DNA of 64,000 nucleotides. Origin: Phoronis australis (taxonomy: Eukaryota; Animalia; Phoronida). Location of the stretch: assembly GCA_002633005.1 (NCBI GenBank), contig NMRA01000642.1, positions 159,285 to 223,284 on the forward strand, read 5' to 3'. Within the stretch, counting starts at the first letter, position 1, and each line of letters starts with the position of its first letter. A program made the position numbers and the translations under genes. The notes beneath the pieces were generated by a model that made no database searches, had not been told where the DNA came from, and saw nothing but the letters and a program-made list of their open reading frames with translations. This document shows, piece by piece, positions 4,204 to 58,000 of this stretch.

Positions 4204-4632
4204 ACAGTACAGCCACTGAATTTTTAGACTTCGTCCGGGTTCCCTCACGCCTGGCCAGACGGGAGCGCAACCGGAACGCACACATGACAGAAATCAGTCA
4301 CGGTCGCCTCACGCCTACTCTCCGGGTAGTCCTCACGCTTACCTCCGGTTTAGTTCACGCTTTCCTCAGGCTTTCTTCACGCCTTCGGTACCTGTGGTAA
4401 CTATGGTATGGCACCGGGCTAATCAATAAAAATACATGTAACGTCTTGATTGCCTGTCGTTTCGGACAAGTTGCAAAGACATTATAGTATATTATAGAGT
4501 ATCTTTGCAAGCAGTCATCTCTCTCATTTGGGTTGCGACTAACTTTGTAATTCCACGTGTTTTTCATACAAACGTCTTCCCTCAGCTCATCTTGTGATAC
4601 GGTTACATGTACATTTTCTATTTACGACTTAA

Positions 4633-7746: not shown

Positions 7747-8294
7747 TTAAATGTTTCATACCGGTTTATGTTATTTTATTTTAGTATTTTTTTACCAGGA
7801 ACGGATTGATATATTTTTTATTTTATTTTTAAATTTGAAGTACCAGAAACAGTAGTAGATTTGATAACCAGCGAAACTTAATTAGTTTAGTTAATTGTGA
7901 AGCCATCCCTGAACTTTCCAGATTGCAGCTAAACTAAACATTTCACAGCGGACAAAACCCCATGTCATTGGTCAAGTTTAATCTTTTTTAGAACTCAAAT
8001 CAAAAATTTATACAAAAGTGTAAATGGTGATAATCAAACTGAAGATTTGGAATCTCTGGACGATTTCGGTTGCACTAACTTTATAACAAGTCTAGCTTTT
8101 TTCAGCCATAAAAATATAGAGTGGGCACAAGTTAAATACAATAGTTTCCTAGTCAAAAATCTGGTTAAACGAAATTGAAAGAATATTAAAAGAATAATCC
8201 ATGTGATGTATTGATAACTCTGATCAGCGTTTGTAAATCCCCCGATTGTATCGATACGCACACTCGTTTATCTTCAATCTTACCCAATGCTTCT
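7747..8294 (+). repeat. ~550-bp dispersed direct repeat, copy 2
   Basis: Matches 3651-4203 and starts exactly at the TTAA that closes the Sola3-like element. Confidence 0.92.
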
Positions 8295-10569: not shown

Positions 10570-11719
10570 GTGCAGGTGGTCTGATGTCATTTGCGGTGCA
10601 TCAGACGTGCGCAGGCCTCATGGTTGGGCCCATTGCACAAAACACCTGAGCAAAGGCACGAGACCCCAATTATGGCTCCTCGTGAAGAAAGTTTTCAAGT
10701 CTGCCAGTCTCCTTTAGGAAAACGGACAGACGTTTCCATTTGTTGCCATGCACTATATGTTGTAGGCATGTAACAATGCCATCCAGTAGGTTGCTCCTTA
10801 GCCTATAAAAAGCTGGGCAAGACTCTACCAGGTGTTTAGGAGATTCTACGTCAGTACCACACTCGGGACACACAGGGCTCCTCATATGCCCAGTAATGTG
10901 TCTGTGTCGGGCTAGGTTGCAGTGGCCCGTCAAAATTTGAATGACGTGTCTTATACCCAATCTATCTAGACTCAGAAGGCTTTTTGAACCTTTTGGTTCG
11001 ATCACGTTGGGAAAATTCTCCTTGGTTTCTCGGCAGGAGTTAAGTGATGCCCACTGGGCTGCTGACTGGGTATGTACCCAGTTGCGTATACTCATCCTGC
11101 AACATCCGTAAGATACCGGGATAGCAGGTTCAGGCACAAAATGCAGAACGCTTGCTCCTATCTTTGCGAGTCTGTCTGCATTCTCATTGCCATCAATTCC
11201 CACATGGGCCCTGACCCAGCGTATATTGACGGTTCTTTCAATTGCAAGCTTGTTAAGCTCATTAATACAAGCATTAACACAACGAGAGTTGACCCTTAGT
11301 TTCTTTAGGGCTTTTATTGCTGCCTGGCTATCTGAAAAGATGATAATTGGCCGATTGCCAAGTTCAGTGTTATATTGTTGTGCCAATTGAGCAGCTCTAT
11401 TAATTGCAGTGATCTCAGCCTGAAACACCGTGGCAAGATTGCCCAACGATACCCAGTTTTCTGCATCTGCAACAGGAAGGCTTGGAAAGTAGACCCCAGC
11501 ACCTGTCTGGCCATTTTCCAGTTTAGAGCCGTCCGTATAACAAACCACCTCATTCTTGTGTTCTGCGGTAGGCCATCCATCGCCAATTTCCGTGAAGAAA
11601 TTGTTTGTATGATTTAAAGTTGTGACCTGGACATCACTAGGCATGTTCCATAGTTGCCCAGTCTTGGCCATTAGCTTATTGCAAACATTCCTTTGGCTTC
11701 CGTGTGCAACGGATTACAA
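10570..11719 (-). mobile_element. 5'-truncated non-LTR retrotransposon (LOA/R1/I group): RNase H, C-terminal Cys/His knuckle and 3' UTR
   Basis: ORF 10670-11671 carries YTDGSK, VFQAEI, FSDSQAA and WVRAHVGIDGNENADRLAK (RNase HI catalytic motifs), then LTGH and CPECG...ESPKHLVESC. No RT domain is present. Confidence 0.92.
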
Positions 11720-24346: not shown

Positions 24347-24406
24347 ATGGCAGCAAATAAGGATTTTGGGCAGGGATTTTACCTGAGTGGTGAAGAAAAG
24401 GAAAAG
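24347..24406 (+). CDS. Putative coding exon 1 (MAANKDFGQGFYLSGEEKEK)
   Basis: Start context caagATGGC. Twenty codons end at AAG|gtggga in phase 0 and join in frame to IRAAAETGD. A TGACGTCA motif lies about 90 bp upstream. No homology or transcript support is available. Confidence 0.6.
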
Positions 24407-28000: not shown

Positions 28001-31000
28001 CACTGTACGCGAAATGTCGCTGCCATATTGTCCAGCTGACATTGTGATTTTTTAATGTAAAGCGATGTTCCCTGGTACTTGTCTTTACATGTTACGTATT
28101 GAAATCAAAATGAAAATAAAGAAAGAGCCGAGTACAATCAACAAACAAACACGTACATGTACATTTAGATGTGCACTGCCCTTATACAGTACTGCTTGTA
28201 TACATGAACATAAACCATTCAGTACATGTACATGTGCATCCGTGCATGTTTCGATCTAAGCAATAAAGCTGTCTAAGATCAGAAGTAAGGTCTGTAATGA
28301 ATGTTACGTTGCTATGACAACGAGGACTTTTACGAACAAAATAACTGAACATTCCTAAGATGCCAAAAGTGCCTTGTTGAATTATTCGATAGAATCAAAC
28401 CATTCTATTGCTTCTGAATGACGTAAAGATTCTAGACCATGACATGAGTTCAACTAACGTGTTAACAGGTGGAGCCACTGAGCTACATGCTGAATACAGC
28501 TTGAATAGGAACATTGGGGCTTTCAACATTCGGTAGTTGATTCTTGAGTTCAGTTCATTGGTGTCTCTTTGTCACGTGTTTTATGCGCTTTGATGGAAAA
28601 TTGCTTCATTGTGAAGTGTTGTGGAGCATGTCTCATACCTGATGATGATATAAGGTATTAGATCGAAACGTTGATCATGAACATGGTTATCATTTCCACA
28701 GTCAGCGTCCAATTAGGCTTATATATACATACACTTAATTCAAGGAGAGCACATGTAACTGAGTAGAGGCGTAACCGCAGTTTTAGTTCTTCGTGACTTG
28801 ATCCGTCACTCACCAATTAACTCACATTGTCAACAAGTCGACACATTCCAGTCTACAAGTCAGAATTTTTTTGTCCAAACAACCCCAGGTCTACCTTTTT
28901 TTAAAGAGACATAAATTCCATTTTGGTATTTTACTGGTTATTGTTTTTCAACATAAACTTAAAGGCATTTCTGACCTCTGAGTTTTACAAAATAATTTAT
29001 TGAAAGAGAAGCATTGGCGATAATCTTTGCTATGAAACGGTTCTATCCGTATTTGTATGGTCGGAAATTTACACTGATTACTGACAACAAACCACTTGTT
29101 GCAATTTTTGGTCCAAAAACCGACTTACCTATTTTAGCAGCAGAAAGAATGCAAAGATGGGCAATGTATTTGTCTGGATTCAACTACGATATCAAATTTC
29201 GTAATAGCAAATCCAACGCCAACGCGGACTGTTTATCTAGATTACCAGCTGAAGAATGTCAACAAGCTGAAAATGAATATGAGCCAACTTATGCTCAGGT
29301 ATTCCATGTTGATATTTTGCCTGTGGAAAATAACCTTATAAAACGNNNNNNNNNNNNNNNNNNNNNNNNNNNNNNNNNNNNNNNNNNNNNNNNNNNNNNN
29401 NNNNNNNNNNNNNNNNNNNNNNNNNNNNNNNNNNNNNNNNNNNNNNNNNNNNNNNNNNNNNNNNNNNNNNNNNNNNNNNNNNNNNNNNNNNNNNNNNNNN
29501 NNNNNNNNNNNNNNNNNNNNNNNNNNNNNNNNNNNNNNNNNNNNNNNNNNNNNNNNNNNNNNNNNNNNNNNNNNNNNNNNNNNNNNNNNNNNNNNNNNNN
29601 NNNNNNNNNNNNNNNNNNNNNNNNNNNNNNNNNNNNNNNNNNNNNNNNNNNNNNNNNNNNNNNNNNNNNNNNNNNNNNNNNNNNNNNNNNNNNNNNNNNN
29701 NNNNNNNNNNNNNNNNNNNNNNNNNNNNNNNNNNNNNNNNNNNNNNNNNNNNNNNNNNNNNNNNNNNNNNNNNNNNNNNNNNNNNNNNNNNNNNNNNNNN
29801 NNNNNNNNNNNNNNNNNNNNNNNNNNNNNNNNNNNNNNNNNNNNNNNNNNNNNNNNNNNNNNNNNNNNNNNNNNNNNNNNNNNNNNNNNNNNNNNNNNNN
29901 NNNNNNNNNNNNNNNNNNNNNNNNNNNNNNNNNNNNNNNNNNNNNNNNNNNNNNNNNNNNNNNNNNNNNNNNNNNNNNNNNNNNNNNNNNNNNNNNNNNN
30001 NNNNNNNNNNNNNNNNNNNNNNNNNNNNNNNNNNNNNNNNNNNNNNNNNNNNNNNNNNNNNNNNNNNNNNNNNNNNNNNNNNNNNNNNNNNNNNNNNNNN
30101 NNNNNNNNNNNNAGAGAGTTGTTGAATCAGATGTTACTGAGGAACCTAATGTTGAATTAAGAAGATCAACAAGGAATAGAAAACAACCTGTTAGATTTGG
30201 ATATGATGACTAATATGTTAGTGTGCATGTAATTGATATAGTGAACTTGATTAGTTTATTTTCTTAACAAGAGCCTACTTTATATTTAGTGAGGGAGAGT
30301 GTTGTTTACTTAGTCACACAATAACAGGATGTTTGTAGGTTGTTGTTGTTTATGAGTTCAGTAGTTTAATTGGTATTATGTCATGAGATTCCTAGTACAG
30401 GAAGTGTGTCATAGGTAACGCATCATATGTTGTTATGTAGTTGTGTGTATATATATTGTGATGATATGTAGAATAAATCAGTTCAGTGTTCAGTTCAATT
30501 CTGTTCGTTTCACTGCATAGTTAATGGAGTGTCTACTTTATTTGACAAAGTAAGATACACAACATCAAAGAATCCCAGTCAAACGTTTTTATCACCTATA
30601 GGTTTATTGGTTGGCAGTGAAACATGCACAGCCAAGTTTTCATTTACTGAGAAGACAGTAAATATTTTACAAGAAAACAGGTGTTCTATAACTTGATAAA
30701 ATATGCAAGCCAAAAACCTAGCATAAATGGAGTCACAGTTAGAATTGGTATACATTTTTGTCCAAACTTAGACCAAAATCGTTTTCAAAATCTTCCAATT
30801 TTATAGCACATCTACGAAACTTGGAACAATACATATTCATCTTACATGTACATGTATGTGTACGTGTATGCTATAGTCTCGATAGGGCCTATAACCGTCT
30901 GCAAAGTGTTGGTGCAACAATACGAAACTTATTCCTGGTCACGTGACACTGAATATATGGTCGTCGAAAAAATATAGACTAAGATGTCTTATAAGAGACT

Positions 31001-34000
31001 TTCAGCCTTTTGAAATACATGTATTAACACACCGCAAAAACACCGGCCACTAGCATCACACGTATAATAAGAGGCATTCTTTAGCATAATCATACGTATG
31101 TAAAGTAAGTTTTTCTCCACAACGTGATCTGGAAATTTTTGCGAACAACATGCAGTTTGACCTTTTTAAGTTGTTTTTAAGTAATGTTGTGGAGTTTCCA
31201 AAAATATGCGGGGGCATACCATATCCTAATTTGCGTTCTTTCTAATGTTAATGGACGATTCGCAATAGATATAAGGCCTTGACGAAAATGATTCTACACC
31301 TCCAAGTGATATAAGGTTTTACAAGACCATACATGTAACACCTACTGTACGAATTGTTTTGTTTAACGCTGCCTTTTCTCTTCAACGGCCAGGTTTCAAG
31401 TAACACTGCCTGCATGATTATATTTTATGTGATGTGTCTAACAATCGTGGCTTAAACCGACAACTTAATTACTCTGGGCGTGTAAGTTAACAATGGAAAT
31501 AATATGGAAGAATGTAAACAAAAATACTGCGATCGCTGTATGTAAAGAAAAGTGTTCTATTCGATAGACTAAAGTTGACCTTGAATGGAGTAACGTTAAA
31601 AGCATGTTTTCAAAAATGTACGTATACATGTGCATATAAATGAAGCGCAGACAACCTACAGGTACATGTACACCAAGCCACATCTTATTGCCTTTATATC
31701 GTCTTTTAAGACATATGGGGAATTATCGCCTAATATGTGAATCCAGTCATTCATCACGCTTGTCCTTTCAACCGACGTAATTTAATTCGCTACTGCACAT
31801 TCTTGAGCTGACGCTACAAAAACCTCAATACATACACCGGAAGCGATGCGTCGACGACAAAAGGCACTCCGAGACACTACACTGTATGTCGATGAACAAA
31901 TATCGACTCGAGACGATGCCCCCTACTACCCCAAAACAATGTTTAAGAAGGCAGGATACCAACTGCAGTTGGCAGCACGTTTTGGGCAACTGAAATTAAA
32001 CACAATACAGTGTCTCCGATGGGACTTGAACCCAGGTTATACGTGGGACGACCAAGCGTGTAAATCTTTGGGTCAAGAGGCAATTGCCGCCAGGCAAGCG
32101 GCTTAGAGAGGCTTTATCTGACTGTACTTGTCGGCACAACCGGAAGTCACGCTTCACACCACTACACACATACCGCGGAACAGGAGCGCTCACTGGCTTT
32201 TAGATCTCAGCGGCACCCTAGCGTCCTTGAATTTGACCTCAGCAACGCTCTCGTTTTGTTATAAATCCATTAGTACCTGGTGGAGAAAGCGGGGCCCAAT
32301 TGAAATGATGGTAAAATGGACACAGTAGGTCAAAATGGACATAATGGTCAACGTGGACACAATGGGTCAAAAGGGAGAAGACAGACACAAGTTTTCCTCG
32401 TTTTTAAAGTTGGTATAATGTTGTGCTATTATGAAGCTTCAATATGAAAACGAGTCAAAATTTGCGAAAAGTATTTCATATTGCCACCATAATCCACACC
32501 CAGGAACAACCCAACACTCCCTCAAATTTCATATCATCTAAGAAGATCCATAATGATAGTGAATTTACACTATTGGCTAAATCACATCAAGGTCCATATT
32601 GGGGAGTTGACTGTTACGGTCTAAAATATTTTTTCGACACTTACCAAATGCCAACCGAATCTCATGCAAAGAATTATTTAGTTATGCAAATTAAAAAAAG
32701 GAATCATCAGACTCGGACAGTGGTTGGGAAATGTATGCATGTTTTTGTCTATTATTTTCACTCTGTTTAGATATGACTGGGAATAACTTGAGTCACTTTC
32801 AGAGTCAATTAGATGAAGTTGTACTTAATCATTGAGAAATTGTATGGTTCATCATAAAACAGGCACTCGTTACAAAATTTGTGAATTCTGTGTTTCTAAC
32901 CCTCACCTACTTTAAAGAAGGTTAAAATCTAAAGTTCACACTCTGTAACGAAAAGAACTGCAAAATATGTCAGCCTAGGCAACACAGCAAATTATTCAAT
33001 ATCTAAACAAACCAAAAGTTTGGATATTGAATTGGTTCTGCTAACAAAATGTAGTGTAGTGTATGTCTGACAAAAACAAAACAATGGACATTATCAAATT
33101 TGTGGACAATAAAATGCCATTCAGGACTTGGCTAGTTCTGAAAATCCTAGAAGACACGTCATGTGACAACTGATGTTGCAGAGGCAAGTTCTCTATCTCT
33201 CAAAACAACTTCAACTTGCAACAAACCCACAAGTAGAAGCAGTTCAAAACTCGAGACCATCCCATACATTTGTAGCTTAGTCAACATTTGACGTCGGTTG
33301 ACTATGCGTAGTGTACGTACCTCCCTCCAAACAGTACAATTTTTACTGTTTACAAGTGGATCACTGGGCCTAACTATTTTGACCAACTGGTGAATGTATT
33401 GAAAACTAGGCAAATAGCACCAATAAAGTTTTTGAAAAAGTAGTAACTTTTCATTTTCTTTTTGTAAAAATCATTGCAATATAAGGAAGTTCTCATTATA
33501 CTGTGTTAAAATATGCAATGTATCATCATCTAGAAAAACTTGATCAGCACGGTAATAACCTTTTTTATTTTAGTATGTGATACTTCTTCAGTTAAATCAA
33601 AAACTTATTAAATCAACAGCTACCTTATGAATTTTTGCATGGTAGAAGTGGGTTGTGACCACAAGTTGTAGTGTACCTACCCTTTTATACAACTGCGATG
33701 CATTAGGCCATAATATTTTATTCGGTGGTTCTTGTGCAAAATATTTTAGATTACAAACCTGGAATGATGGTACTCTAAAACAACTCAGCTTTTAAAGTTA
33801 TATGACAACTTCATTTTTCACCAAAAGTGGCCACCGAAGATGGACCTTGATTGTGATTTGGCCGTAGGCGATTTAAAATCTATTTGTTATTATTTTCAGA
33901 TTAGAGCAGCTGCAGAAACAGGCGACTGTTCAACAGTTGTGGAGTATGTAAACCGTGGTTGGGATGTGAACCAAGAACTGTTTTTGTTGGTAAGTATTTA

Positions 34001-40000: not shown

Positions 40001-43000
40001 CGAGTGGCCAAAACCTGAGCTCCCATGAGAATTTGGGTGTGTAGAGTTGTGTTATTGCATCATTCTGTCGTATGGAGACTGACTTCAAAAATAGCAGTTA
40101 TTTAAGGATAACGATGTAACTTCATTTTTAAAATAGAAACATTCTTGTCATGGTTGCTCTGCCGTACTTTAAAGATTAACGGGGACTCGGTGGATGAAAT
40201 TGGGTTATGAAATCAATCACTACGAGTGAGTATCACCTCTGTGCAGGTCACCAAAAAACAGTCGTGTCTGGAAATTGTTCTTGTAAAGTAAGCGAAAGCG
40301 ACCTACATGTAGGCCTAATTTTGTTACTTTATCTCGATGCTCTGTTCTAAACGTAACTGATATATTGCAAGCTCAATAAATATTTCTCAAAACAATTAGA
40401 ATGATATCAATGACGCTTGTTTGATTTTAATCAGGCCGCATTTTATTGCTCAAAAGTGTATCGGGTGTATAAATTTTAGTGAAATGAAGTACAGTTTTGA
40501 CGTGCCAGTGTATGTCTAATTATTGATTTCCAGATTTTGTTCTATTAATAGATGGACTGGTGTACACATGACGCATTGTACTACTGGGTGATTTCACATA
40601 AAGAAAGGAATTTTAAAGATTTATTTAGATATTTTTTTACATTCAAATGTTTGGCAGTACAACGTGTTATAATTTTTGGGTGACTGCTACATGTATTATT
40701 CTACTGCCCAGTATTTTGCACATTATCTGTACTTATTTCTTCCTATATGTTGTCCAAGTGAACGTGGGATCCAAATGGCCGTCGGCTACTCGAGGCGTAA
40801 CTTGAAATTGCGGCTTTTGTTAAAGTTGTTGAATTTTTGTATTCCTTGTTTGGTTGTCATAGAATCGGTCGTTTTCATTCCGTTGCATATTCTCTGAGAC
40901 CAAGTATTTTTGACATTTCCCTCTTTACGCACCATTCTGAAACAAAATGTTGAATAAAATAAATCAACAAACTTCTCAAACTTTTGTTACAATATAGAAA
41001 GCTGTATCCATGCCGAAACACCAGTTTGAACGTCTGGTCGTAAAATTGTCAAACGAAAGTAGAAAAAAAAAATTGCAACATCGCTGATTTGGTTAGTCAC
41101 GGACTCTTTAATTGGTTCTTTGCGATAAGGAAGTGCCCCTTTAAATATATTCAAGAACTGACAAATGTATCAATTTATCGCGTGTACACGCGAAAACTGT
41201 CTGGAAAAGCGCTCTTTTTAAAAGCAACGCTTCGCCTGGCCAGACCGCTGCCACGTCGTCTCAAGAATAGCAGAACAATTTGTGTTTGCGTCGAAATGGG
41301 AGCCACATGATTGATTGGTTTTCTGAACAGCAATCTTGACAAGAAGAAAGGTTTTGGTGAAATGTGTCTTAACGTGCGTTTAACTTGTAGAAAACTCTTT
41401 ATTCTTTTCCTGAACGTTTTGCCTGCTGACATTTTGTTCGATGCCATTAACAATTTGAATTGAGTTCCCTGTGCCCGTTTTTCTGACCAGTAACAAACCA
41501 TACTTCAGTTACGTTTTGATAATATCCATTGCCAATAGTCAATTTACACTATATTGATTTTCTCTCATTCTTTTCTTCCTGGTTGTTCCCGATTTAAATT
41601 TGTTAAAAGAACTTATTTGCATCTCAGGAAAAAGTGAAACTGGACTTCATAACTTAGTTTGAACATGTTTTTCATTTCACGCCTCCAGCAGAGATTGGTT
41701 TGCGGTAGACCTACTAATTAAAGCAAACAAGACGACCACGAAAACTTTACCGATATAATCACAAGTTTTACATACAGTGTATTAATTTTTGCCTTTAACA
41801 TTTTCCTACTACATTGTGCCTAAAAAAATCCGGCAAGTCACATTTCGTCTTGTTTATCCGAAAATTGAAATAGACCTATAACTCTCATGAAATCCATTTC
41901 TTAAAAATGGTAATCAAATTTGATAAATAAGGTCACGTTATTGTCAAGAACAGTGATAGCCCTTTCCTAGCTACAACCAGTCGTACGGACTTTGATAAAA
42001 GTGTCCATATTTTTAAAAAACATGTCATGTCTTCGCTCTGAGGATTATTTTTAACACTAACAAACTTACTACGAGAGCGACGTAATCTTGGTCTTGAAAA
42101 ATAATGATCTATTCAAACGACAACTGATGAATTACCTGATAAACAGAGAGTAGATTTAGTAATTGTGTGTGCAAATGTGTTATTCCAACGTTTCTTGTGA
42201 TGAGTAATTAAGATTCACGGTGAAGTTAGTGATTGTAAAATTTGCTATAACTTGTTCATTGTTTCTGCAGGACGACACAGCACTACACTGTGCAGCACAG
42301 GTGGGACATACAGAGGTGGTGCGTGTTTTGTGTAAAGCAGGCGCTAAGGTCAACAAGCAAGGCTGGGTAATAGAAACTACTTGAGACGATTTTGTAATTA
42401 AGACAATGATATCTTTGTTACAAAGCTGTAAACTATCTGAAGTTGAACTAAACATGTAGTGTGTAAATACACTTTTTATTTCTCATCATTTCGACATGTA
42501 TTTTTCAATCTGTACCTGGCACATGCATCTTAAGTAACAGTGAGGTTTGAATTTTGTCAACAATATATTTGGCGACTTAACCTTGATATTTTTCTATTCT
42601 TAATGGTAATCGTCCATTCAAAAGTACAACTTTATATTAATCAGGAAGCCGTTAAACCGGTGTATAAACACAACATGGAGGGGTCACTGTGAAGTTATGG
42701 AGGCGCTCAGTAATTTCTGGCAGTCGACGTCTACATCATGTTCTGTTCTTACTTCAACGTTTTAAAATCACCTGTAAAACTTGAGTGTTGAAATCATTAC
42801 AAGTATTGTAGCGTCTTAGAGGGGTCAGTAATGTTTCATTTATGTCACCTTACAAGTTCACTTTCCCCGTGTATGTTAATTTGCTCTAAACGTTGATCGT
42901 CCATTCACACATCTCCATTATATATTACATAGGAGGACAATACACCGCTGCACTGTGCAGCACTGAATGGTCGTACACAGACAGTGAAGTGTCTTGTGGA

Positions 43001-46000
43001 ACACAACGCTACAGTGGATGTCCGTAATGAGGTAATTAATGACACACAGGTTGTTTGGTTGAACTAGTTGTTTACACAAGAGATGATTAAAACTATTGAG
43101 TAACAAATTTTGTTGATATTTTCCCAATTTAATGTCCCTAAACAATGTCAAATTAAATGTTGTCTGCTTTCCAACAGAGAACTGTCAAAGCTGCATCCGA
43201 ACATTTCAGTTGATCCATTATTGTTGTTTTATTTACCTATATAATATATTCTACATTTCGTCAAACAATAGTTTCCTTCAGACGATCTGGATCGCCTCAT
43301 TTAGTTTCACATTTATTTTCTACGTTATTTTGATTGTCCAACACTTTACAGCGCACAATTACTTGCTGTGTGTTACCGGCCTGTAACCAGACAGGGAACA
43401 CTGAACACGCTCTGTTGTTTTGTTCTAAAACTTAACATTTTCCTGTTGAAATCATTACAGGTATTGTAGCGTTTTAGAGGGGTCAGTAACGTTTCGTTTA
43501 TGTCACCTTACAAGTTTACTTTCCCCCGTGTATGTTAGTTTGCTCTAAACGTTGGTCGTCCATTCACACATCTCCATTATATATTACATAGGGGGGCAAG
43601 ACACCGCTGCACTGTGCAGCACAGCGTGGTCATACACAGACAGTGAAGTGTCTTGTGGAACACAACGCTTCAGTGGATGTCCGTAATGAGGTAATTAATG
43701 ACACACAGGTTGTTTGGTTGAACTTGTTGTTTACACAAGAGATGATTAAAACTATTGAGTAACAAATTTTGTTGATACTTTCCCAATTTAATGTCCTTAA
43801 ACAATGTCAAACTAAATGTCGTCTGCTTTTCAACAGAGAACTGCCAAAGCTGCATCCGAACATTTCAGTTGAATCATTATTGTTGTTTTATTTACCGATG
43901 TATATTCTACATTTCGTCAAACAATAGTTTCCTTCAGACGATCTCGATCGCCTCATTTAGTTTAAGATTTATTTTCTACGTTATTTTGATTGTCCAACAC
44001 TTTACAGCGCACAATTACTTGCTGTGTGTTACCGGCCTGTAACGAGACAGGGAACACTGAACACGCTCTGTTGTTTTGTTCTAAAGCTTAACGTTTCCCG
44101 GTTGAAATCATTTCAAGTATTGTAGCGTCTTAGAAGGGTCAGTAGTGTTTCATTTATGTCACCTAACAAGTTCACTCTCCCCCGTGTATGTTAATTTGCT
44201 CTAAACGTTGATCGTCCATTCACACATCTCCATTATATATTACATAGATGGGCCTGACACCGCTGCACTGTGCAGCACAGCGTGGTCATACACAGACAGT
44301 GAAGTGTCTTGTGGAACACAACGCTACAGTGGATGTCCGTGATCTGGTAATTAATGACACACGGGTTGATGAACACACAATACGTGACGAGGCTGAATTA
44401 TTGGATGCTTTAATTAAATAATCACAGATTGTAATTTTGTCTGTAAACGTTGAATTCACGGCACGTGTAGTGACGCGCACGTGCACGTGACGTGCTCGCG
44501 ACATTAAGTAATTAGAAACAGTTTTCACTTCACCTTGAGTTGTACAATGAGCAATGGTTCTTTACCTACATTCCCATAGCACTCACTAAATGATTGTGAC
44601 TCTGTTGTAATATAAAACATCAAAATCTAACATTTGAAATCATCTTTTCAGTCGCGTGACAACAACAGATCAGCATTTAAAAAATCTCGCTCATTTATGT
44701 CTGAATTTAAATGTCAGGTGTAGTCGTGCTCTGTTGAGTCACCCGCTTTTTACAGTAAGTATGCAACTGAAGGTGAAGTTCTGAAACAGAAAGGTATGAA
44801 GCGTGCCGCCCTGTTGACGCACCCACTTTGCTATTCGTAATGCTGACCAGCATTCTGTCTTTTTTGTTCATTTACTGTAGGATGGAGACACACCCTTACA
44901 TCTTGCATCCCACAGAGGACAGGCAGCGGTCGTGGAACTGCTGGTCCGTGAAGGCAGCTGCGACGCGGCTGCCGTAAACAAGGTATCTCAAGAGTGTTGT
45001 ACTCCGAGTTTAGTTAATGCTGCAATAAATGTGTTTTAAATGAATATTGAGTTCGAGGAATTGTTCACTCATAATAAATATCTGATCAAAAATGAACAAC
45101 CTCTTTACGTGGAGTTATACAAAGAGTCACTCCTTCACCGCAAGTACCTTCCCATAACACGCAGAGAAACTAAAGCCGCTGGTCTGATCCTACTATTGGG
45201 ACACAAACTAAAAACAAACCAACCACGCCGTAAGGCGCCAAACACAGGCACACATTTTGATATTCTCACTTCATAAAAAGATGCAGATTTTTTATCAGGT
45301 CAGTGCTTGGAATCAGGTGTGCATTTAGGGACCTCAGTAAAGGTTATTTGTCAAGGTTGATTTAAAAAGCGATTATAAGTCGTGTAGTTTCGTGGTTTAT
45401 TTTTAATGCCACTACACTGTTGTGTAATATGTTCCTGTCATGATTTGATTGATATACTCTGTGATGGGGTAATGTAGGGGATGAATTAGTCAAACCCTAC
45501 GTCCTGTTTTCACAATTCGAGGAGTCTGCTTAAACAAAACCCTGGAAAAAGCAGAGCGCTGTAAAACTTAATCACGTGCCGTGATCTTTTGTGATCCATT
45601 ATAAATCCAGGGTATTGAAATATGTTTGGTTCACCCATTCACCATCGTATTTCGGGTACCAGTTCAGGGTTCTCGCCGCAGTGAATCAAACAACGCCTTT
45701 TGAAATAAAGGTTGCTGGTCAACACGCTAGACGTTCGTTTTCATAGAAATACGAATACGCAACAACTTAAATGAATGGACACAAATCTTTATATCTTCTT
45801 AATGGATACATTGTAAGACAAAATTATATTTCTCAAGGTTGATTTCACGTTTGGACTGAGAATAAATCGAATTGAAAAAAATTAACACGCTCGTTGGAAT
45901 TTCAACACTAGAGAGTAGAACAGTTCGAGTTCTTGAACATACCATTTTCCCATGATGTTTTTACTTTATTTATGTTTCTGTTGACAAAGGACGTTATTAC

Positions 46001-49000
46001 ATCCGAAAATTTCAGTTGATCCATTCTTGTTGTTTTACTTACCTATTTATAGTCTACATTTCGTGAAACAATAGTATCCTTGGGAGGATCTGGATCGCCT
46101 TATTTAGTTTCAGTTTTATTACTCTGCGCGTGTAAGCGCAGAGTACTGTTGTTCCTGGGTTTTCTTCAATTTTATTCTTATTACTCTGTGCGTGCAAGCG
46201 CAGAGTACTGTTGTTCCTGGGTTTTCTTCAATTTTATTCTTATTCTTCTTATTCTTATTACTCTGCGCGTGTAAGCGCAGAGTACTGTTGTTCCTCGGTT
46301 TTCTTCAATTTTATTACTCTGCGCGTGTAAGCGCAGAGTACTGTTGTTCCTCGGTTTTCTTCAATTTTATTCTTATTCTTATTCTTCTTATTCTTCTTTC
46401 GACCAACTTTGAGGCTTAATAAATCCAAATTGGGTGCAGGTACGGTCTTTAAATTCGGCATATGAGTTTTGACGGTAAATAAATTTTGATTGGTTATGTA
46501 ATCATATTCCATATTGCACCAGAAGAGGTCATTTGGTGCAAAGGTCATATAATTTTCAAAATGCTACTTCTCCTTCAGTTTTAAAGCTATCTTTTTCAAA
46601 TTCGGTGCACAGGTATAAGTCACCATGACAATTTAAAAAATTACTATTCTAAGTAATCGGGTTATCCAATCAGGTGAAATAGGTCAAAGGTCATTAGGTG
46701 CAAACTAAAATTTTGAGCTAGACATTTCAAATTGCCACTGGTAAATCAAATCGGAATCCAAAGTTTCAGGTCATTTGGTGCAAACATGGGGTCATTAGGT
46801 GCATTTTACTTCTGAAGATTTGACCTTTTCAATCAGCAAGTTTTCTGATGTGTTAACCGTTAGACAACTGTGATTCTCAGCGTTAAACATATTTTCCATG
46901 GGTTTTGCAATAATTCTCCTAAAGATGCTTAAAATGCACCGGATTAGGTCAATTAGTGCAAAGGTCATGTAATGTTCAAAATGTTATATCTCTTACGTTT
47001 TTCAAGGAATTCTTTTCAATTTCAGCACACCGGTATAAGTCAACATGACAATATAAAAAATTACTTTTCTAACCAATTGGGTCATCCAATCAGGTTAAAC
47101 AGGTCAAAGGTCATTAGGTGCAAACTAAAATTTTGAGCTAGACACTTTAAATTCACAGTTCTGATTGGCACAGAAAATTCAATTTGGAATCCAAAGTTTC
47201 AGGTCTTTTAGTGCAAACATGGGGTTATTAGGTGCATTTTTCTTCTGAAAATTTGATCTTTTCATTCTCCAAGTACACTGATGTGTCAACCGTTAGACAA
47301 CTGTGATTCTCAGCATTAAACACATTTTTCATGGGCTTTGCAATAATTCTCCTAAAGACGCTTATAATGCACCGGATAGGGTCAATTAGTGCAAAGGTCA
47401 ATTAACGTTCAAAATGTTAAATTTCACGTTTTTCAAGGAATTCTTTTCAATTTCAACACACTAGTGTATGTCAACATGGCAATTGAACGACCTACTTAAC
47501 TACGCAATAGGCTTAACCAATCAGAAAAAATAGGTCAAATGTCATTGAGTGCAAAATTAAAATTTTGAGCTAGAGACTTCAAAATTACATATCTGATTAC
47601 TAAACGCGATTGAGTTTGAATTCTAAATTTTTGGGTCATTTGGTGCATCCATGGGGTCATTAGGTGCATTTTTCTTCTGAAAGTTTGACCAATTCATTCA
47701 TGTTGTATTCTTAAGTGCTTAAAGCAAAACACCTGTGATTCTTAGCATTAACTATACTTTAAATTGGTTGTACAATTATTCCCTCACTGGGTTTCATAAT
47801 GCACCGGAAGAGGTCAGTTAGTGGAAAGGTCATCAAAACATTAACATGAAATTACTTCTACAATTTTAAAGAATTTCTTTCCATATTGGTAAACGGGGTT
47901 GCTGTCAGTAACTTCCCATAACAATTCCTTTAATACGCACGCGCAGAGTTCATTATTGTCACGCCGTGACAATAATCATTCTAGTTCTTCTTATTCTTCT
48001 TCCGACCAACTTTGAGGCTTAATAACTCCAAATTGGGTGCAGGTACGGTCTTTAAATTCATCATATTACTTTTGACAGTATATAACTTTTGATTAGTTAT
48101 ATAATCATATTCCATATTGCACCGGAAGAGGTCGTTTGGTGCAAAGGTCATATAATTGTCAAAGTGCTACTCCTCCTTCAGTTTTTAAGCTATCCTTTTC
48201 AAATTCGGTGCACAGGTATAAGGTAACATGGCAATTAAAAAAAATACTTTTCTAAGTAATCGGGTCATCCAATCAGGTGAAATAGGTCAAAGGTCATTAG
48301 GTGCAAACTAAAATTTTGAGTTAGACACTTCAAGTTGACAGGTCTGATTGCCACAGTTAAATCAAATCGGAATCCCAAGTTTCAATTCATTTAGTGCAAA
48401 CATGGGGTCATTAGGTACATTTTTCTTCTGAAAATTTAACCTTTTCAATCAGCAAGTATTCTGATGTGACAACCGTTAGACAACTGATTCTCAGCGTTAA
48501 ACACATTTTCCATGGGCTTTGCAATAATTCTCCTAAAGATGCTTAAAATGCACCGGATAAGGTCAATTAGTGCAAAGGTCATGTAACGTTCAAAATGTTA
48601 TATCTCTTACGTTTTTCAAGGAATTCTTTTCAATTTCAGCACACTGGTGTAAGTCAACATGCCAAGTGAATACCCTACTTTACTTCGCAATAAGCCTAAC
48701 CAATCAGAAAAATAGGTCAATGGTCATTGAGTGCAAACTAAAATTTTGAGCTAGAGACTTCAGAATTACGTATCTGTTTACTAAGTGCGATGGAGTTTGA
48801 ATTCTAAATTTTCAGGTCATTTAGTGCACCCATGGGGTCATTGGGTGCATTTTTCTCCTGAAAGTTTGACCACTTCATTCATCTTGTATTTTGAAGTGCT
48901 TAAAGTAAAACATCTGTGATTATTAGCATTAAGCACACTTTTAATCGAGTTAACAATTACTCCCTCATCGGGGCTCATAATGCACCGGAAGAGGTCAATT

Positions 49001-52000
49001 AGTGGAAAGGTCATCAAAAAATTAATATGTACACATGTAATTTCTCCTACAATTTTAAAGAATTCCTGTTCATATTGGTATACGGGCTGCTGTCAGTAAC
49101 TTCCCATAATTCCAGTAATACGCACGCGCAGAGTCCGTTATTGTCACGCCGTGACAATAATCTTTCTAGTTCTTATTCTTATTCTTCTTCTTATTCTTCT
49201 TCCGACCAACTTTGAGGCTTAATAACTCCAAATTGGGTGCAGGTACGGTCTTTAAACTCAGCATATGACTTTTGACAGTATATAAATTTTGATTAGTTAC
49301 AAAATCATATTCCATATTGCACCGGTAGAGGTCGTTTGGTGCAAGGGTCATATAATTTTCAAAATGCTACTCCTCGTTCAGTTTTAAAGCTATCTTTTTC
49401 AAATTCGGTACACAGGTATAAGTCAATATGACAATTTTAAAAATTACTTTTCTAAGTAATCGGGTAATCCAATCAGGTGAAATAGGTCAAAGGTCATTAG
49501 CTGCAAACTAAAATTTTGAGCTAGAGACTTTAAATTGACAGGTCTAATTGCGACAGGTAAATCAAATCGGAATCCAAAGTTTCAGGTCATTTAGTGCAAA
49601 CATGGGGTCATTAAGTGCATTTTTCTTCTGAAAATTTGACCTTTTCAATCTGCAAGTATTCTGATGTGTCAACCGTTAGACAACTGTGATTCTCAGCGTT
49701 AAACACATTTTCCATGGGCTTTGCAGTAATTCTCCTAAAGATGCTTAAAATGCACCGGATAAGGTCAATTAGTGCAAAGGTCATGTAACGTTCAAAATGT
49801 TATATCTTACGTTTTTCATGGAATTCTTTTCAATTTCAGCGCACAGGTATATGTCAACATGAAAATTTAAAAAATTACTTTTCTAAGCAATTGGGTCATC
49901 CAATCAGGTTAAACAGGTCAAAGGTCATTAGGTGCAAACTATAATTTTGAGCTAGACACTTTAAATTCACAGTTCTGATTGGCACAGATAATTCAATTTG
50001 GAATCCAAAGTTTCAGGTCATTTAGTGCAAATATGGGGTCATTAAGTGCATTTTTCTTCTGAAAATTTGACCTTTTCATTCTCCAAGTACACTGATGTGT
50101 CAACCGTTAGACAACTGTGATTCTCAGCATTACACACATTTTCCATGGGCTTTGCAATAATTCTCCTAAAGACGCTTATAATGCACCGTATAGGGTCAAT
50201 TAGTGCAAAGGTCAGTTAACGTTCAAAAAGCTATATCTCTCACGTTTTTCAAGGAATTCATTTCAATTTCAGCACACTAGTGTATGTCAACATGCCAATT
50301 GAACAACCTACTTAACTACGCAATAGGCCTAACCAATCAGAAAAATAGGTCAAAGGTCATTGAGTGCAAAATTAAAATTTTGAGCTAGAGACTTCAAAAT
50401 TACATATCTGTTTACTAAACGCGATTGAGTATGAATTCTAAATTTTTGGGTCATTTGGTGCATCCATTGGGTCATTAGGTGCATTTTTCTTCTGAAAGTT
50501 TGACCAATTAATTCATGTTGTATTAAGTGCTTATGGCAAAACATCTGTGATTCTTAGCATTAACTATACTTTAAATTGGTTGTACAAATATTCCCTCACT
50601 GGGGTTCATAATGCACCGGAAGAGGTCAGTTAGTGGAAAGGTCATCAAAACATTAGCATGTAATTACTCCTACAATTTTAAAGAATTTCTTTTCATAGTT
50701 TGGTAAACGGGGTTGCTGTCAGTAACTTCCCATAACAATTCCTTTAATACGCACGCGCAGAGTCCATTATTGTCACTCTGTGACAATAATCTTTCTAGTT
50801 CTCCTTATTCTTCTTGCGACCAAATTTGAGGCTTAAAAACTCGAAATTGGGTGCAGGTACCGTCTTTAAATTCAGCATATGAGTTTTGACAGTATATAAA
50901 TTTTGATTGGTTATATAATCATATTCCATATTGCACCGGAAGAGGTCGTTTGGTGCAAAAGTCATATAATTGTCAAAATGCTACTCCTCCTTCAGTTTTA
51001 AAGCTATCTTTTTCAAATTCGGTGCACAGGTATAGGTCATCATGAAAATTTGAAAAATTACTTTTCTAAGTAATCGGGTCATCCAATCAGGTGAAATAGG
51101 TCAAAGGTCATTAGGTGCAAACTAAAATTTTGAGCTAGACACTTCAAATTGACAAGTGTGATTACCACAGGTAAATCACATCGGAATCCAAAGTTTCAGG
51201 TCATTTAGTGCAAACATGGGGTCATTAGGTGCATTTTCCTTCTGAAAATTTGACCTATTCAATCAGTGAGTATTCTGATGTGTCAACCGTTAGACAACTG
51301 TGATTCTCAGCGTTAACCACATTTTCCATGAGCTTTGCAATAATTCTCCTAAAGATGCTTAAAATGCACCGGATAAGGTCAATTAGTGCAAAGGTCATGT
51401 AACGTTCAAAATGTTATATCTCTTACGTTTTTCAAGGAATTCTTTTCAATTTCAGCCCACTGGTGTAATTCAACATGTGTACCAATTGAATACCCTACAT
51501 TACTTCGCAATAGGCCTAACCAATCAGAAAAAAATAAGTCAAAAGTCATTGAGTGCAAACTAAAATTTTGAGCTAGAGACTTCAGAGTTACGTATCTGTT
51601 TACTAAGTGCGATTGAGTTTGAATTCTAAATTTTCAGGGCATTTCGTGCACCCATGGGGTCATTAGATGCATTTTTCTTCTGAAAGTTTGACCACTTCAT
51701 TCATCTTGTATTCTGAAGTGCTTAAAATAAAACATCTGTGGTTATTAGCATTAACCACACTTTTAATCGAGTTAACAATTAATCCCTCATCGGGGCTCAT
51801 AATGCACCGGAAGAGGTCAATTAGTGGAAAGGTCATCAAAAATTAATATGTAATTTCTCCTACAATTTCAAAGAATTCCTTTTCATATTGGTAAACGGGT
51901 TGCTGTCAGTAAATTCTCATAATATTTCCAGTGATACGCACGCGCAGAGTCCGTTATTGTCACGCCGTGACAATAATCTTTCTAGTTTTCTACGTTACCC

Positions 52001-55000
52001 ATGATGTTTGCAATGAATGTAATCTGTGGAGAATGTGGAAGTTCTTAAACTCTTTCGACAATAACGTTTTGGGGATGTTTTATAATAAGTTTTTTTCGCA
52101 TTACACTTTATAGACTTAAATGTACGAGCTAATAGAATGGAGACCCTTTACGTATTCAGTTATTTCCTTCATTATTAAAGATGTTATATTACAGTTAAAT
52201 TAATTCACTTTCCTTTTCTATGTGACTTTTCGGCAACATGTACTTTTATCTATGGCTATGGTGCAACNNNNNNNNNNNNNNNNNNNNNNNNNNNNNNNNN
52301 NNNNNNNNNNNNNNNNNNNNNNNNNNNNNNNNNNNNNNNNNNNNNNNNNNNNNNNNNNNNNNNNNNNNNNNNNNNNNNNNNNNNNNNNNNNNNNNNNNNN
52401 NNNNNNNNNNNNNNNNNNNNNNNNNNNNNNNNNNNNNNNNNNNNNNNNNNNNNNNNNNNNNNNNNNNNNNNNNNNNNNNNNNNNNNNNNNNNNNNNNNNN
52501 NNNNNNNNNNNNNNNNNNNNNNNNNNNNNNNNNNNNNNNNNNNNNNNNNNNNNNNNNNNNNNNNNNNNNNNNNNNNNNNNNNNNNNNNNNNNNNNNNNNN
52601 NNNNNNNNNNNNNNNNNNNNNNNNNNNNNNNNNNNNNNNNNNNNNNNNNNNNNNNNNNNNNNNNNNNNNNNNNNNNNNNNNNNNNNNNNNNNNNNNNNNN
52701 NNNNNNNNNNNNNNNNNNNNNNNNNNNNNNNNNNNNNNNNNNNNNNNNNNNNNNNNNNNNNNNNNNNNNNNNNNNNNNNNNNNNNNNNNNNNNNNNNNNN
52801 NNNNNNNNNNNNNNNNNNNNNNNNNNNNNNNNNNNNNNNNNNNNNNNNNNNNNNNNNNNNNNNNNNNNNNNNNNNNNNNNNNNNNNNNNNNNNNNNNNNN
52901 NNNNNNNNNNNNNNNNNNNNNNNNNNNNNNNNNNNNNNNNNNNNNNNNNNNNNNNNNNNNNNNNNNNNNNNNNNNNNNNATGTTAGTTTTAAAGATCAAG
53001 TGACGTCGCTAAAAAGATGGCGTATATGTCATTGGGCAGGTAATTAGCGTTTGTTAGCAGCTTCAGTATCAGTGTTCGGATTTTTGTTGAGTGTATTACC
53101 AAACATTCACATGTACGTTTCGGCTAAATGAAGCAGTGTCCACTGTGGCTGACAAAGCCTTTTCTTAATTTTCTATTAGCAAAAACAGTAAACCTAGCGA
53201 CTGTTCACACATGATTTCTATTCACTTATGTAGCTGCCGAGGCATAACGTAAATAATTTGAAGAGGCCTAGAACGCGAAAAACGGGCTAAATTGCGTTAT
53301 TCATTCAGGGTTTTTCTGCCACTGAAACAAAAGCCATTTATCCAATGTGTTCGTAACATTTTATATTTAGTGTTGATGACAAAGTGTTTTTGTTTTAGTT
53401 TCAAATTTCAAAAAATAGCTGTCAACTGTTCGCCACTTATCAATTTTTCTCCAGCAAAGCACGTCTGCTTATTTCGTATTACAAGGCACAGACATAGCAC
53501 ATTCCGCTCCGATGGAAAAATGATCTTTGACCCTTGATAGAAACAACACAATCTTGACTTCAAGCAGCAGCCAGTCCAATTAAGAAACAATTGTTTGAAA
53601 TTAGTTATTAATGTATCGTAATATTCAAACATTCTAAAATTCGTTAAGTACATGTATGAAAGCCAAAAACAGAAGAAAGAAAACAAGGCGACCAAATCCA
53701 ATCAATGACCTACCATTGTTACAAATGCTGATACCGACAGAGTGTATTCATCTCGTCTCTTCTTCATTTTTGGGAGAGTGTGAGGAACTACGGAATATGT
53801 TTTCTTCATTATATACAGTTTAGAAAAACAAAATTTTAATTAAATGTATCGCAACATTACCATGGGTATATTGTTAACAAGTATACAATAGATGGCAAAT
53901 AATAGAAATGTGAAATTCTACACATTCATTTTAACGTGCTTTCTTCCTATGTTTAGTAGAACAGAGCCATCGTGGAACTCTTCCCGTGACAACGATAACA
54001 CGGTCACAATGGTTGTCATTGTCTACTACACAGGCCTTGTGGATGACATAGTGCTTTTCAACACGTTAGGAAGTTAACTAACATGACATCTGTCAGCCTT
54101 CAAGATGGGCCTGAAAATTATAAATTTGTGTGATTTGTAGGATGGAGCAACTGCTTACGATGTCTGTGGCGACCAGTGTAATGTGTTTTTTAACAAGGTC
54201 GACGATGGGACTATCGAGAAAATAAAGAAAGTCCTTAAGGTATGTAGTGGTGAAAAAATATTCAGATTTTTGTTTTGAATAGAAAAATGTGTTTTTATGA
54301 TTTATCAGCGTTATGAAGGAATCTCAGTAGTATTGCCATCAATTATCGAACCTCCAAAGGCAACACTTTGCATGTACTGAGGTGTATCTCGGCAGAAGAT
54401 AAAACAGAAGCATCCCGCTCAAGAGCTCACTGTGTTGGACTTCCATGTTTATCTGCATTGTATTTACAGGGCAGTCACAAAACTACATTACCATGTTGCA
54501 AGGGAAGACATACTTACAATATCGTCATGCCAATAATATTTTATGAGAATTTACTTGCGTTGTTATCAATTATCGCGTTGGTGTCGTTTAAGAAAATGTG
54601 TTACTCTTCTTAAACGCCATTTGCTCCGTTGGGAAAAAGTCCCGAGTTTCAACACTGATCCCTTCAGAGATGTAATTCAGATTTAACTGTACATGTAGGT
54701 CTCGTGAGTTTACTAATGTATGGCGTGTATTTAATACATTGTATAATTGTTTTTTGGTTATAAATATACATCTTTGTAACGCAAGTGCGAGGAAGGTTAT
54801 ATCTCCTGATCTCTTTGTCATTTACACAGGTCAGGAGACAATTTAATAACATGTTTGTGTGAATATTTGTATTATTTTAATTGGCAATTGGTTGCCTGCA
54901 GGAGCGCATGCGACTGGAACAGCAAAGCGGACCACCTCCCCCAAATGAAGACGCCCATAAAGGTCCTGCATCCGTTGCTGAAAAAGCGAACGTGTTATTA

Positions 55001-58000
55001 GCAGCGCTGGAAGATTATATAAACGCAATAGGTGAAAGCATACCTGATGGTGTGGTAAACGTGAACGTACAAGTAAAACGAAAGGACGACAGGACACTGG
55101 AACTATGTAGCGTGGATACTACATTGAAGGGTATTGTATGCTGTGACGTTTAGTATCACTGTACGAGGTTGAGAAAAGTGAAAACATGACTATGTTTCAG
55201 ATTTCTTACATCCAACTCGATCGGCTTACGGAAAATAATACATTTAGTTTGAAATTCGTAAAAACATATTTTGTGTTTTTTCGGGCATAAGCTTGTCTGT
55301 TATTTCTCATACCAATCTTTTCGTAACTGAATATGTGATCTTCACATGTTAGAGCATCGAGGACGCATTGCATGTTGGCAATTTTTAATCCCTCAAATCG
55401 AACCGTCTCCCTCGAACTCGGCTCCAGGATATGATGGTAATTGTTTCTATAATTTTCAGAGAACTCGTAACTCCGTATAATAACAAAAAATAATAACATT
55501 GTTAAACATTGCCTGAAACTAAGACAAAAAGAAAGTTCTAGTATTCAGCATCTATGAGCATGCTCAAACATAGACTATTGCAAGAGATACTGCAATAAGG
55601 CAACTTTAACTTCGTGGACAACTACTTGAATGACAGTTAATGCTTCATAAATCCACAGAAAATCTTGTGCGCTTAAAGTAGTACCATACATTTTGGTTTT
55701 TCCAAAAGATTTTTCCATTTTGACTTCCGGCTTTCAGGTGCATGCGCTTAAGTTCCAAAATTTGACGGTTTTGAGCTCAGATTATAGACGCTACTTTACT
55801 TTTTTACCAAAATATACCGAACTCATTTATTTTGCACACCGTATACCGTCAGTGACGTTCTGGTGGAAGTAAGCCTGGTAGAGTGGTGTTTATGTTCTAA
55901 AAATGTACACTTTTAATGCTGTAAATTTTACTTTTATCAAAGCGTTTAGCCATCGATCTTGATAAAGTAACACTTGGTTAGTCGAATACATCTCCATATT
56001 CTAAAAAGTTACTCAATACTTTACTGTAACTGTTAGATCACTTTATTTTCAATTGTTTGACTTGTGTTTGAGCACCATAATCAAGACAAGTTGTACTCAA
56101 ATGTCCTCATAGGTGCAAGTGGCTATTGATATTAGTCAAACAGGCAAAGATCTGCAATTACATGAAGGTGCACACGCTCCATTACGTGGCTATACAGTTC
56201 CACTTGATTTTGCATATAAATCAACACGTGACGAAATTGGGAAATGAAAATTTCAACTTTCCTGACATGTCATATGTTCTCAGAATAATTACTTTTTGCA
56301 AAACTTTCTATTGCAGTGACTCCTAGTTGGAAGTCTTCAAACAGAATTTTAATATTGATGAAACAAATACCTGTAAACGTATTTACAATGAGAATTAAAG
56401 TGAAAGTCACTGTATAAACTTGTGAACAAAGACATACACCAGTTGGAATGAAGAAATCTTGATTATTGAAATTATTATTGAAAACACATTTGACAACAAG
56501 TCTCAAATTGACATGACATCCCGGTCTGCTTTGCAATAAATACTTGGAAGTGTCTACTACCAGACTTTACATGGATGTATAAGATATAGCGAACCACGCG
56601 CAGTAGTGTTTTTTTAAAACAAAGCATAACCTTCCAGGTAGGCCTACTATGCAGGCCAATTTTATGTCCTTGTTTTAAGTTTATTTTTGGAACTTGTTTA
56701 TTAAATGTATCACTTCTTGCCTAATGGAAACCGGTGTGGAGGTGTAAAATGAACTTTCTTCTCGGCATGCTTAAATTGTGTCAATGATCACCACAAAAGT
56801 GCAACAAACTATGCAAATTTTCAATATTCCAGTTTAGAAAATGTATTTTGTGTTGCACCATGTAATATTAAATGTCTATATGTCGACATATAACTTTTCA
56901 GACAGTGCAAGGTTATTATTTTCGGTAGTGTTGTGATTTAAAATAAAAAATAAACTTTTATAAAAACCGGTTTTACTGCACCGAAATCTGCCTGAGTGTG
57001 AGAAATTCAAGATACAGGTATTTGTTTCAAACAACTAATCCAATGAATAACCTTGTTGGCACACCTTATTGAATTGTTCACTGATCAAGTGGAAAGTAGG
57101 CCCAATGCGTTCTGCTTGTAAATTGCTTTGTGGGGGAACTGGACACCCCAGATGTTTACGATATGTGTGGTTGTATTAGTCGCAACACTACACTGTATGA
57201 TCCAGCCAGACGGCTGTTACTCTTTCAGTCTAGGGAGAAAACCTGGCAACGAATGCATGGTTTTGAAAAAAGGCACGGTCTGGGTCTTCAGTATTTGGTC
57301 ATTTACTGCAACATTATCGAAGTGTCGTTACCATGCATCTTTTTTAATTTCAGAATATTTTCCACGCTCTGTTCCCGTAAAAAAGCAGTCTGGTCTTTTT
57401 GGCACGATCCCTGACAGGGGAGAAAAGGTGATTTCAGCACACCTCCAAAAGTCTCTGACCAATGCAGTATCAGCAGTAGCCCAACTTAAGCGGTCAGATG
57501 GACTTGGGGTGGGGTCGGGCTTCCGAGTCGGGCTCACTTACGTGATGACGAACTATCACGTGTATAAGTTGCTGAGTCTTGATGTTGCCAGTAAGTATAT
57601 CGATGGTTGATTGATTGATTGTCGAGGTTAAATCTACCTGTATGGTAAGTTGCTGTTGTACAGTTTGTCTACATTCGTTCAGAAGTACATGGTGTAGGTC
57701 AACATGTCTCAGAATTAGCATGGAAGTACAAATATATAAGGACATGGATTGTCTGCAGCTTACTCTCTGTAGTAGTATTATTGCCTCATTTTATTTCCGT
57801 TTGAGAATGAGACAAGTATGTTTCGAAATAAAGCGTGTGTCATTTAATCATGTTTTGTTCAGTTGTTTCACCGATGTTCTGTTGAGTGTAGAACTTTGTT
57901 CCGAGGATACGAAATGAACGGAATAAAGGCTGTTAATGACGACAAGTGCGCTGTATTTAATCAATTTTGCACACCAAAAAAACTATAATAGGAACTATGC

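Follow-up and report, generated by a model that had tools for sequence, protein, structure and literature searches.

Replacement differences at binding-face positions of a triplicated ankyrin exon in a predicted ankyrin–protease gene of Phoronis australis

Repeat arrays that evolve variable binding faces have been described in fungi, brown algae and animals. In fungal NLR/STAND proteins with highly conserved ankyrin (ANK) repeats, such as Podospora Pa_3_8560, polymorphic sites under selection are located on the inner helix and the β-hairpin (Dyrka et al. 2014, PMC4986451). Brown-algal ROCO genes encode one leucine-rich repeat (LRR) per exon, and the concave face is under diversifying selection (Teng et al. 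2024, PMC11378527). In the animal PRDM9 zinc-finger array, an 84-bp coding minisatellite whose product binds DNA, a homogenized repeat scaffold carries hypervariable contact residues (PMC8925151). Here we describe a locus in a 64,000-nt stretch of the phoronid Phoronis australis (contig NMRA01000642.1 of assembly GCA_002633005.1, forward-strand positions 159,285 to 223,284; hereafter the window, numbered from its first letter), in which three near-identical ankyrin exons, designated A, B and C, differ from one another only by residue replacements, mostly at positions that designed ankyrin libraries randomize. The exons belong to a gene that is predicted to end in a FAM111-like serine protease.

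The Phoronis gene resembles fungal NLR ANK arrays in having near-identical repeats with a variable binding face, a pattern for which concerted evolution has been proposed in fungi (PMC4986451). It differs from them in its animal host, its single repeat per exon, its intron within the hairpin, its C-terminal FAM111-like protease and the lack of NACHT or NB-ARC in the predicted model. With brown-algal ROCO genes it shares one exon per repeat and introns of the same phase; however, its repeats are ANK rather than LRR, a protease is present rather than Roc-COR, and there are three young copies, whereas the algal genes have many shuffled exons and demonstrated alternative splicing (PMC11378527). 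As with PRDM9, the host is an animal and a homogenized scaffold carries variable contact residues, but the unit here is an exon plus its intron and the repeat is of a protein-binding type (PMC8925151). Designed ankyrin libraries overlap with the variable positions at five of six (PMC3308923) or four of six (PMC4308713) randomized sites; unlike in these artificial libraries, codons 2, 14, 27 and 32 vary too. Because it lacks an NTPase switch and carries another effector, the Phoronis gene is not a member of the fungal NLR, algal ROCO or PRDM9 systems. The evolutionary pattern is already known from those three systems, and what appears new is the predicted pairing of ANK with FAM111. No such fusion, and no comparable animal array, was found among the titles and abstract openings returned by literature searches; the domain tables of PMC9798293 and PMC8195603 may bear on this novelty.

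Replacement differences among exons A, B and C

Exons A (42933–43031), B (43592–43690) and C (44248–44346), all on the forward strand, are each 99 nt long, have AG/GT borders and phase 0, and individually score above the Pfam Ank cut-off (E = 8.1e-9, 4.7e-11 and 1.9e-10, respectively). A and B are 8 nt apart, in codons 1, 2, 3, 11, 12, 14 and 27; B and C are also 8 nt apart, in codons 1, 3, 27, 32 and 33; and A and C are 13 nt apart. Every codon that differs among the three is a residue replacement; counted along mutational pathways, A/B and B/C each require 0 synonymous steps and A/C requires 0.33. A first-pass annotation, made from the letters of the window, had given the same A/B and B/C codon lists and called all of the differences replacements, and our codon recount agrees with it fully. 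Its summary of the variable residues named positions that do vary, but omitted codons 14 (R/H/H in A/B/C) and 27 (T/S/T), both of which are variable scaffold positions. Codon 2 (D/G/G) corresponds to the glycine of the hairpin, a conserved residue. The variable codons are clustered at 1–3, 11–14 and 32–33, and high internal identity (8–13 of 99 nt different) is confined to A, B and C among the seven ankyrin exons in the window.

The three exons are part of a block of recent duplication (42786–44368, forward strand) that comprises about 2.4 exon-plus-intron units of 659 and 656 bp, with 93.6% identity over 928 bp. The introns that separate the upstream ankyrin exon P, exons A, B and C and the downstream exon D measure 566, 560, 557 and 534 nt; only two of them are homologous throughout, and a comparison of these two over their full length shows differences at 31 of 557 sites. 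The P–A and C–D introns showed no homology to the A–B intron past 147 and 22 nt, respectively. All three copies share 147 nt on the upstream side of the exon and 22 nt on the downstream side, and this shared flank contains 14 changes in 169 sites in a three-way comparison. Over the 100 nt of intron that precede A and B, where about five differing sites had been reported, four substitutions and one gap were found. A 121–124-bp piece at 46000–46120 is 86–87% identical to mid-intron sequence at 43194–43317 and 43853–43973; it adjoins a large satellite on the left and may be either a dispersed repeat or a relic of unit formation. The first or the last copy of the duplicated unit lacks 391 bp.

Changes were counted on a star tree, the sample being three copies from one assembly. 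The exons carry at least 15 changes, none of them silent, with 6, 8 and 1 at codon positions 1, 2 and 3. The probability of observing no silent change is 0.005–0.015 for 15 changes and 0.02–0.046 for 11 codon-level events; the earlier caution that statistics from three copies are weak was apt, the silent-change test being weak by itself. The replacement rate of the whole exon is 2.4–2.6 times the flank rate (Fisher P = 0.005–0.01), and a transversion excess in the exon was not significant (P = 0.098).

The positions of the changes were assigned by the TPLH register, in which exon codons 33, 1, 3, 11 and 12 correspond to consensus positions 2, 3, 5, 13 and 14. The set randomized in classical designed ankyrin repeat proteins (DARPins) comprises positions 2, 3, 5, 13, 14 and 33. 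One designed library randomizes positions 2, 3, 5, 10, 13 and 14 (PMC3308923), and a second, referred to here as the ANK-N5C set, lists positions 2, 3, 5, 10, 13 and 33 (PMC4308713). With either the first library or the classical DARPin set, five of the six positions are variable, compared with 4 of the remaining 27 (P = 0.003), and among 33 circular shifts the true mask comes first. These results support the first-pass claim that the variable residues occupy binding-groove positions, largely those randomized in DARPins.

Because position alone might reflect mere tolerance, rates were compared with that of the flank. Of the 15 changes, 11 fall on five of the six library positions of PMC3308923. 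The library positions comprise about 13 replacement sites, which puts the rate there at 9.6–10.6 times that of the flank (conditional P = 8e-7). Counted as seven codon events, the same excess has P = 7e-4. In the harshest stress test, in which the hottest 100 nt of intron served as the neutral rate, the seven events are 2.6–2.8 times the expected number (P = 0.015–0.022). Binding-face sites are at 2.6–10 times the neutral rate, with P from 1e-6 to 0.02 depending on the counting rule and with only three sequences compared. This rate over the local non-coding level is not explained by relaxed constraint alone. From these comparisons, diversifying selection, rather than clusters of mutation, probably drives the changes among A, B and C.

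The predicted ankyrin–protease gene

On the forward strand, seven ankyrin-like exons can be joined to a linker exon and then to three protease exons in matching phases, giving 606 codons plus a stop. Ahead of the triplicated exons are an N-cap-like ankyrin exon (33900–33989; 30 codons, AG/GT, phase 0) and exon P (42271–42366; 32 codons; Ank E = 1.7e-9), an older relative of A, B and C with 72–75% nucleotide identity over 60–68 nt. Behind them are the diverged exon D (44881–44982; 34 codons; Ank E = 5.5e-9) and a C-cap-like degenerate ankyrin exon (54141–54239; 33 codons, AG/GT, phase 0). Five of the seven candidate ankyrin exons pass the PF00023 model (35.7–42.8 bits, against a cut-off of 21.1), and neither cap exon alone has a Pfam match. 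Profiles built from the seven exons matched those seven only, with no further or orphan ankyrin exon in the window.

The linker exon (54902–55130, phase 0 to 1) belongs to no recognized family; its 76 residues matched no Pfam family, and an ESM Atlas search with them was also empty. It is followed by protease exon 1 (57354–57590), which contains the N-terminal helix region and the catalytic His motif, exon 2 (58165–58490), which contains the catalytic Asp motif, and exon 3 (60423–60767), which contains the catalytic Ser motif and the stop codon. A candidate first coding exon (24347–24406; ATG, 20 codons, phase 0) was chosen by eye; it is in frame with the next exon, and CCAAT and CRE-like motifs lie upstream of it. 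With this exon included, the predicted model comprises 12 exons and 626 aa, with a single terminal stop and canonical splice sites. That the ankyrin and protease exons are joined in one transcript is very probable. No NACHT, NB-ARC or Roc-COR domain was detected in the 626-aa model or in the long open reading frames of the window, of which the N run at 52268–52979 is unreadable.

The downstream FAM111-like protease exons, which the first-pass annotation had missed, bear on the likely function of the gene. The His/Asp/Ser triad motifs are intact and in order across the three exons, which encode a FAM111-like serine protease of predicted trypsin fold and predicted proteolytic activity. A search with the last exon returned 25 proteins at E ≤ 0.001 among 1.84 billion representatives; 17 of these contain Trypsin_2 (E ≤ 0.01), ankyrin is absent from all 25, and 2 are repetitive proteins with no relation to the protease. 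Ten relatives were looked up, and the six that were named are all bivalve. A 16-row profile, built from 13 relatives and the three exons of the window, gave human FAM111A as its two best PDB matches (E = 1.7e-24 and 1.2e-23), followed by another family at E = 0.0024; judged by profile score, the protease is closer to FAM111A than to other trypsin-fold enzymes. With a profile of the 13 homologues alone, the three protease exons were the only matches in the window, and the model scored E = 3.6e-47. Identity to the best invertebrate relatives is about 25–34%. Single protease exons gave no Pfam match and no useful PDB match, and did not reach FAM111A; a word-indexed search of proteins, queried with the last exon, gave no match among 80 candidates, and the ESM Atlas returned trypsin-clan leads for the same exon.

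The protease portion resembles FAM111A/B (PDB 8s9k, 8s9l) in its C-terminal trypsin-fold domain with a His/Asp/Ser triad and in being the best match of the family profile. Unlike FAM111A/B, the model has an N-terminal ankyrin array instead of ubiquitin-like (UBL) domains and a PIP box, and three traits of vertebrate FAM111A (UBL domains, PIP box and α1 dimer valines) were not found in it. Invertebrate FAM111 forms also lack UBLs, and human FAM111A is an antiviral restriction factor against SV40 and poxvirus mutants (PMC9798293) that requires dimerization through its first helix (PMC10920703).

Among the best 7997 candidates scored were 11 long relatives of 586–2000 aa. Three of the 11 contain Roc-COR, one of these also containing NACHT, and another is named as a Death-domain protein; the accessions on other long relatives we take to denote HEPN/DZIP3, CCCH zinc-finger and Rel homology domains. 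The proteins P0018, P0033, P0035 and P0040 are FAM111-like proteases behind Roc-COR in bivalves and a cnidarian, with NACHT in the sea-anemone one.

Proposed mechanism and competing explanations

A one-repeat ankyrin exon was triplicated as an exon-plus-intron unit. We propose that the 660-bp units exchange sequence by conversion or unequal crossing-over, which would add, remove and homogenize repeats, and that selection would diversify the binding-face residues of A, B and C. Ankyrin arrays frequently gain and lose units (PMC5100051), and ankyrin duplication more often involves several repeats together (PMC1553488). Since the unit includes both exon and intron, recombination can gain or lose repeats without disturbing the frame. 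The intron falls within the β-hairpin, such that codons 32–33 of one exon and codons 1–3 of the next make up one hairpin; altered exon order or number would consequently create new hairpins in frame. In the encoded protein, a cytosolic ankyrin array would be fused to a FAM111-like serine protease, with the array as sensor and the protease as effector. The groove may bind a foreign or conflict-related protein and bring the protease to its target; alternatively, binding may release, cluster or switch on the protease. Trypsin-like effectors are recurrent in bacterial conflict systems (PMC8195603); the account of them there makes no reference to FAM111.

An immune role of the ankyrin–protease gene is inferred. 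If selection and a single gene are granted, we lean towards a conflict or immune function in which the groove recruits the protease to its target, or else releases or clusters it. Taken together, the reading of a diversifying binding face on an ankyrin–protease gene that is likely to be an immune sensor–effector, is drawn from sequence and strikes us as about an even prospect. It is unlikely, in our view, that the array is a natural DARPin-like library, in which exon number, order and splicing would vary among individuals and an antiviral protease of the FAM111 type would be aimed directly at foreign proteins, with no intervening NOD or Roc switch. If correct, the sensor–effector reading would add a minimal design to invertebrate immunity, an animal ankyrin case with a protease of antiviral type. 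It would also suggest that FAM111 proteases are ancestrally modular effectors that are re-aimed through sensor swaps, an idea to which the fusions of relatives with Roc-COR, NACHT and Death domains likewise point, and it would provide a locus at which specificity change maps to five known positions and is directly testable.

Several observations weigh against this reading. When clusters are counted as five patch events, the probability of no silent change is 0.17–0.25, which is not significant. The ANK-N5C set gives a weaker association (4 of 6 positions variable compared with 5 of 27, P = 0.034; mask rank 1–3 of 33). Outside the six library sites, there are 4 replacements compared with 4.7–5.1 expected, so that the scaffold is not measurably below neutral; of the earlier proposal of diversifying selection over a homogenized scaffold, the rate above the local non-coding level and the mosaic copies described below are supported, but constraint on the scaffold is not. 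Copy A alters two conserved scaffold residues, the hairpin glycine and the position-16 histidine, and may be decaying. The case was also chosen post hoc from many windows, with three copies in a single assembly. As for the architecture, exon D and the C-cap exon are 9.2 kb apart, with a satellite and 712 N in the intron between them, such that the ankyrin–protease fusion is a prediction. Ankyrin was absent from the 25 last-exon matches and from the 11 long relatives, leaving the predicted architecture without corroboration from relatives. Finally, polar residues occupy the positions of V347 and V351 at the human dimer interface, according to an ungapped alignment by eye; because these valines appear not to be kept, activation may differ from that of human FAM111A.

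An alternative that we consider unlikely, and take to overlap in part with diversifying selection, is that the differences predate the duplication, either having arrived as short conversion patches from paralogous ankyrin exons in other parts of the genome or because unequal crossing-over stacked alleles that had diverged long before. In that case, the comparison with the flank would overstate recent selection. Copies A, B and C are mosaics, and their flank and exon trees differ: A, B and C have 0, 7 and 6 private changes in the upstream flank, and 6, 1 and 6 in the exon (permutation P of about 0.006). This difference points to conversion or unequal crossing-over, and the discordance, like the clustering of the changes, favours older variation. 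A neutral donor, however, should bring third-position changes, and only 1 of the 15 changes is at a third position, itself a replacement (P = 0.019); this scarcity speaks against import from a donor that diverged neutrally. Moreover, no other close copy is present in the window, and no close protein relative of the three repeats was found among 42 candidates with a query that included 11 intron-derived residues (five distant ankyrin proteins, best identity 57%). Older variation would still require earlier selection on the same sites.

It is also possible, although rather improbable, that the ankyrin surface is unconstrained and that a few multi-base mutations accumulated by chance after neutral exon duplication. 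The independent events are few, the introns also contain clusters (three changes in 8 nt), and the scaffold's neutral-like rate fits as well. Relaxation, however, caps at the neutral rate, whereas the binding-face sites exceed it under all of the flank rates tried; in 200,000 runs of a neutral simulation, at least five of six variable sites together with no silent change were obtained in only 6e-5 to 2e-4 of runs.

We regard as very unlikely a Dscam-like arrangement in which diversity is made by splicing, with A, B and C serving as alternative cassettes or excluding one another. The exons of brown-algal ROCO LRRs are alternatively spliced (PMC11378527), and in the Phoronis gene every ankyrin exon is in phase 0 and the splice-site sequences of A to C are identical, such that the frame survives any exon subset. 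Against this, introns of 557–566 nt impose no steric exclusion, and no convincing docking–selector pairing was found among the longest 25 of 31 inverted pairs. Cassette splicing is nonetheless compatible with a diversifying binding face, to which it could add a layer. An assembly artefact in which allelic haplotypes were placed in tandem is hardly credible: units about 94% identical approach the allelic divergence of some marine invertebrates, and N runs are present in the window, but three versions with private changes exceed one diploid locus, the junctions are continuous, the block is free of N, and both of its ends are anchored in unique sequence.

Repeats and gaps in the window

Two N runs are present, at 52268–52979 (712 bases) and 29346–30112 (767 bases); the first, inside the predicted gene, could hide exons. 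A 5.9-kb intronic array at 46108–52000 consists of units of about 430 bp within units of about 1.6 kb, with terminal hairpins and a TTC/TTA-rich microsatellite; it resembles non-autonomous elements related to Helitrons that occur in invertebrates. A remnant of a frame resembling long terminal repeat (LTR) retrotransposon pol was recognized by eye in the predicted first intron, at 28996–30210 on the forward strand. An open frame of 347 aa with RNase H (Pfam E = 7.4e-16) lies at 10673–11713 on the reverse strand and is likely to be the end of a non-LTR retrotransposon. Two direct repeats of about 500 bp, at 3716–4213 and 7814–8304, are 4.09 kb apart and 86–93% identical; between them, at 5932–6682, are broken minus-strand frames that have no significant Pfam match and are possibly a decayed transposon.

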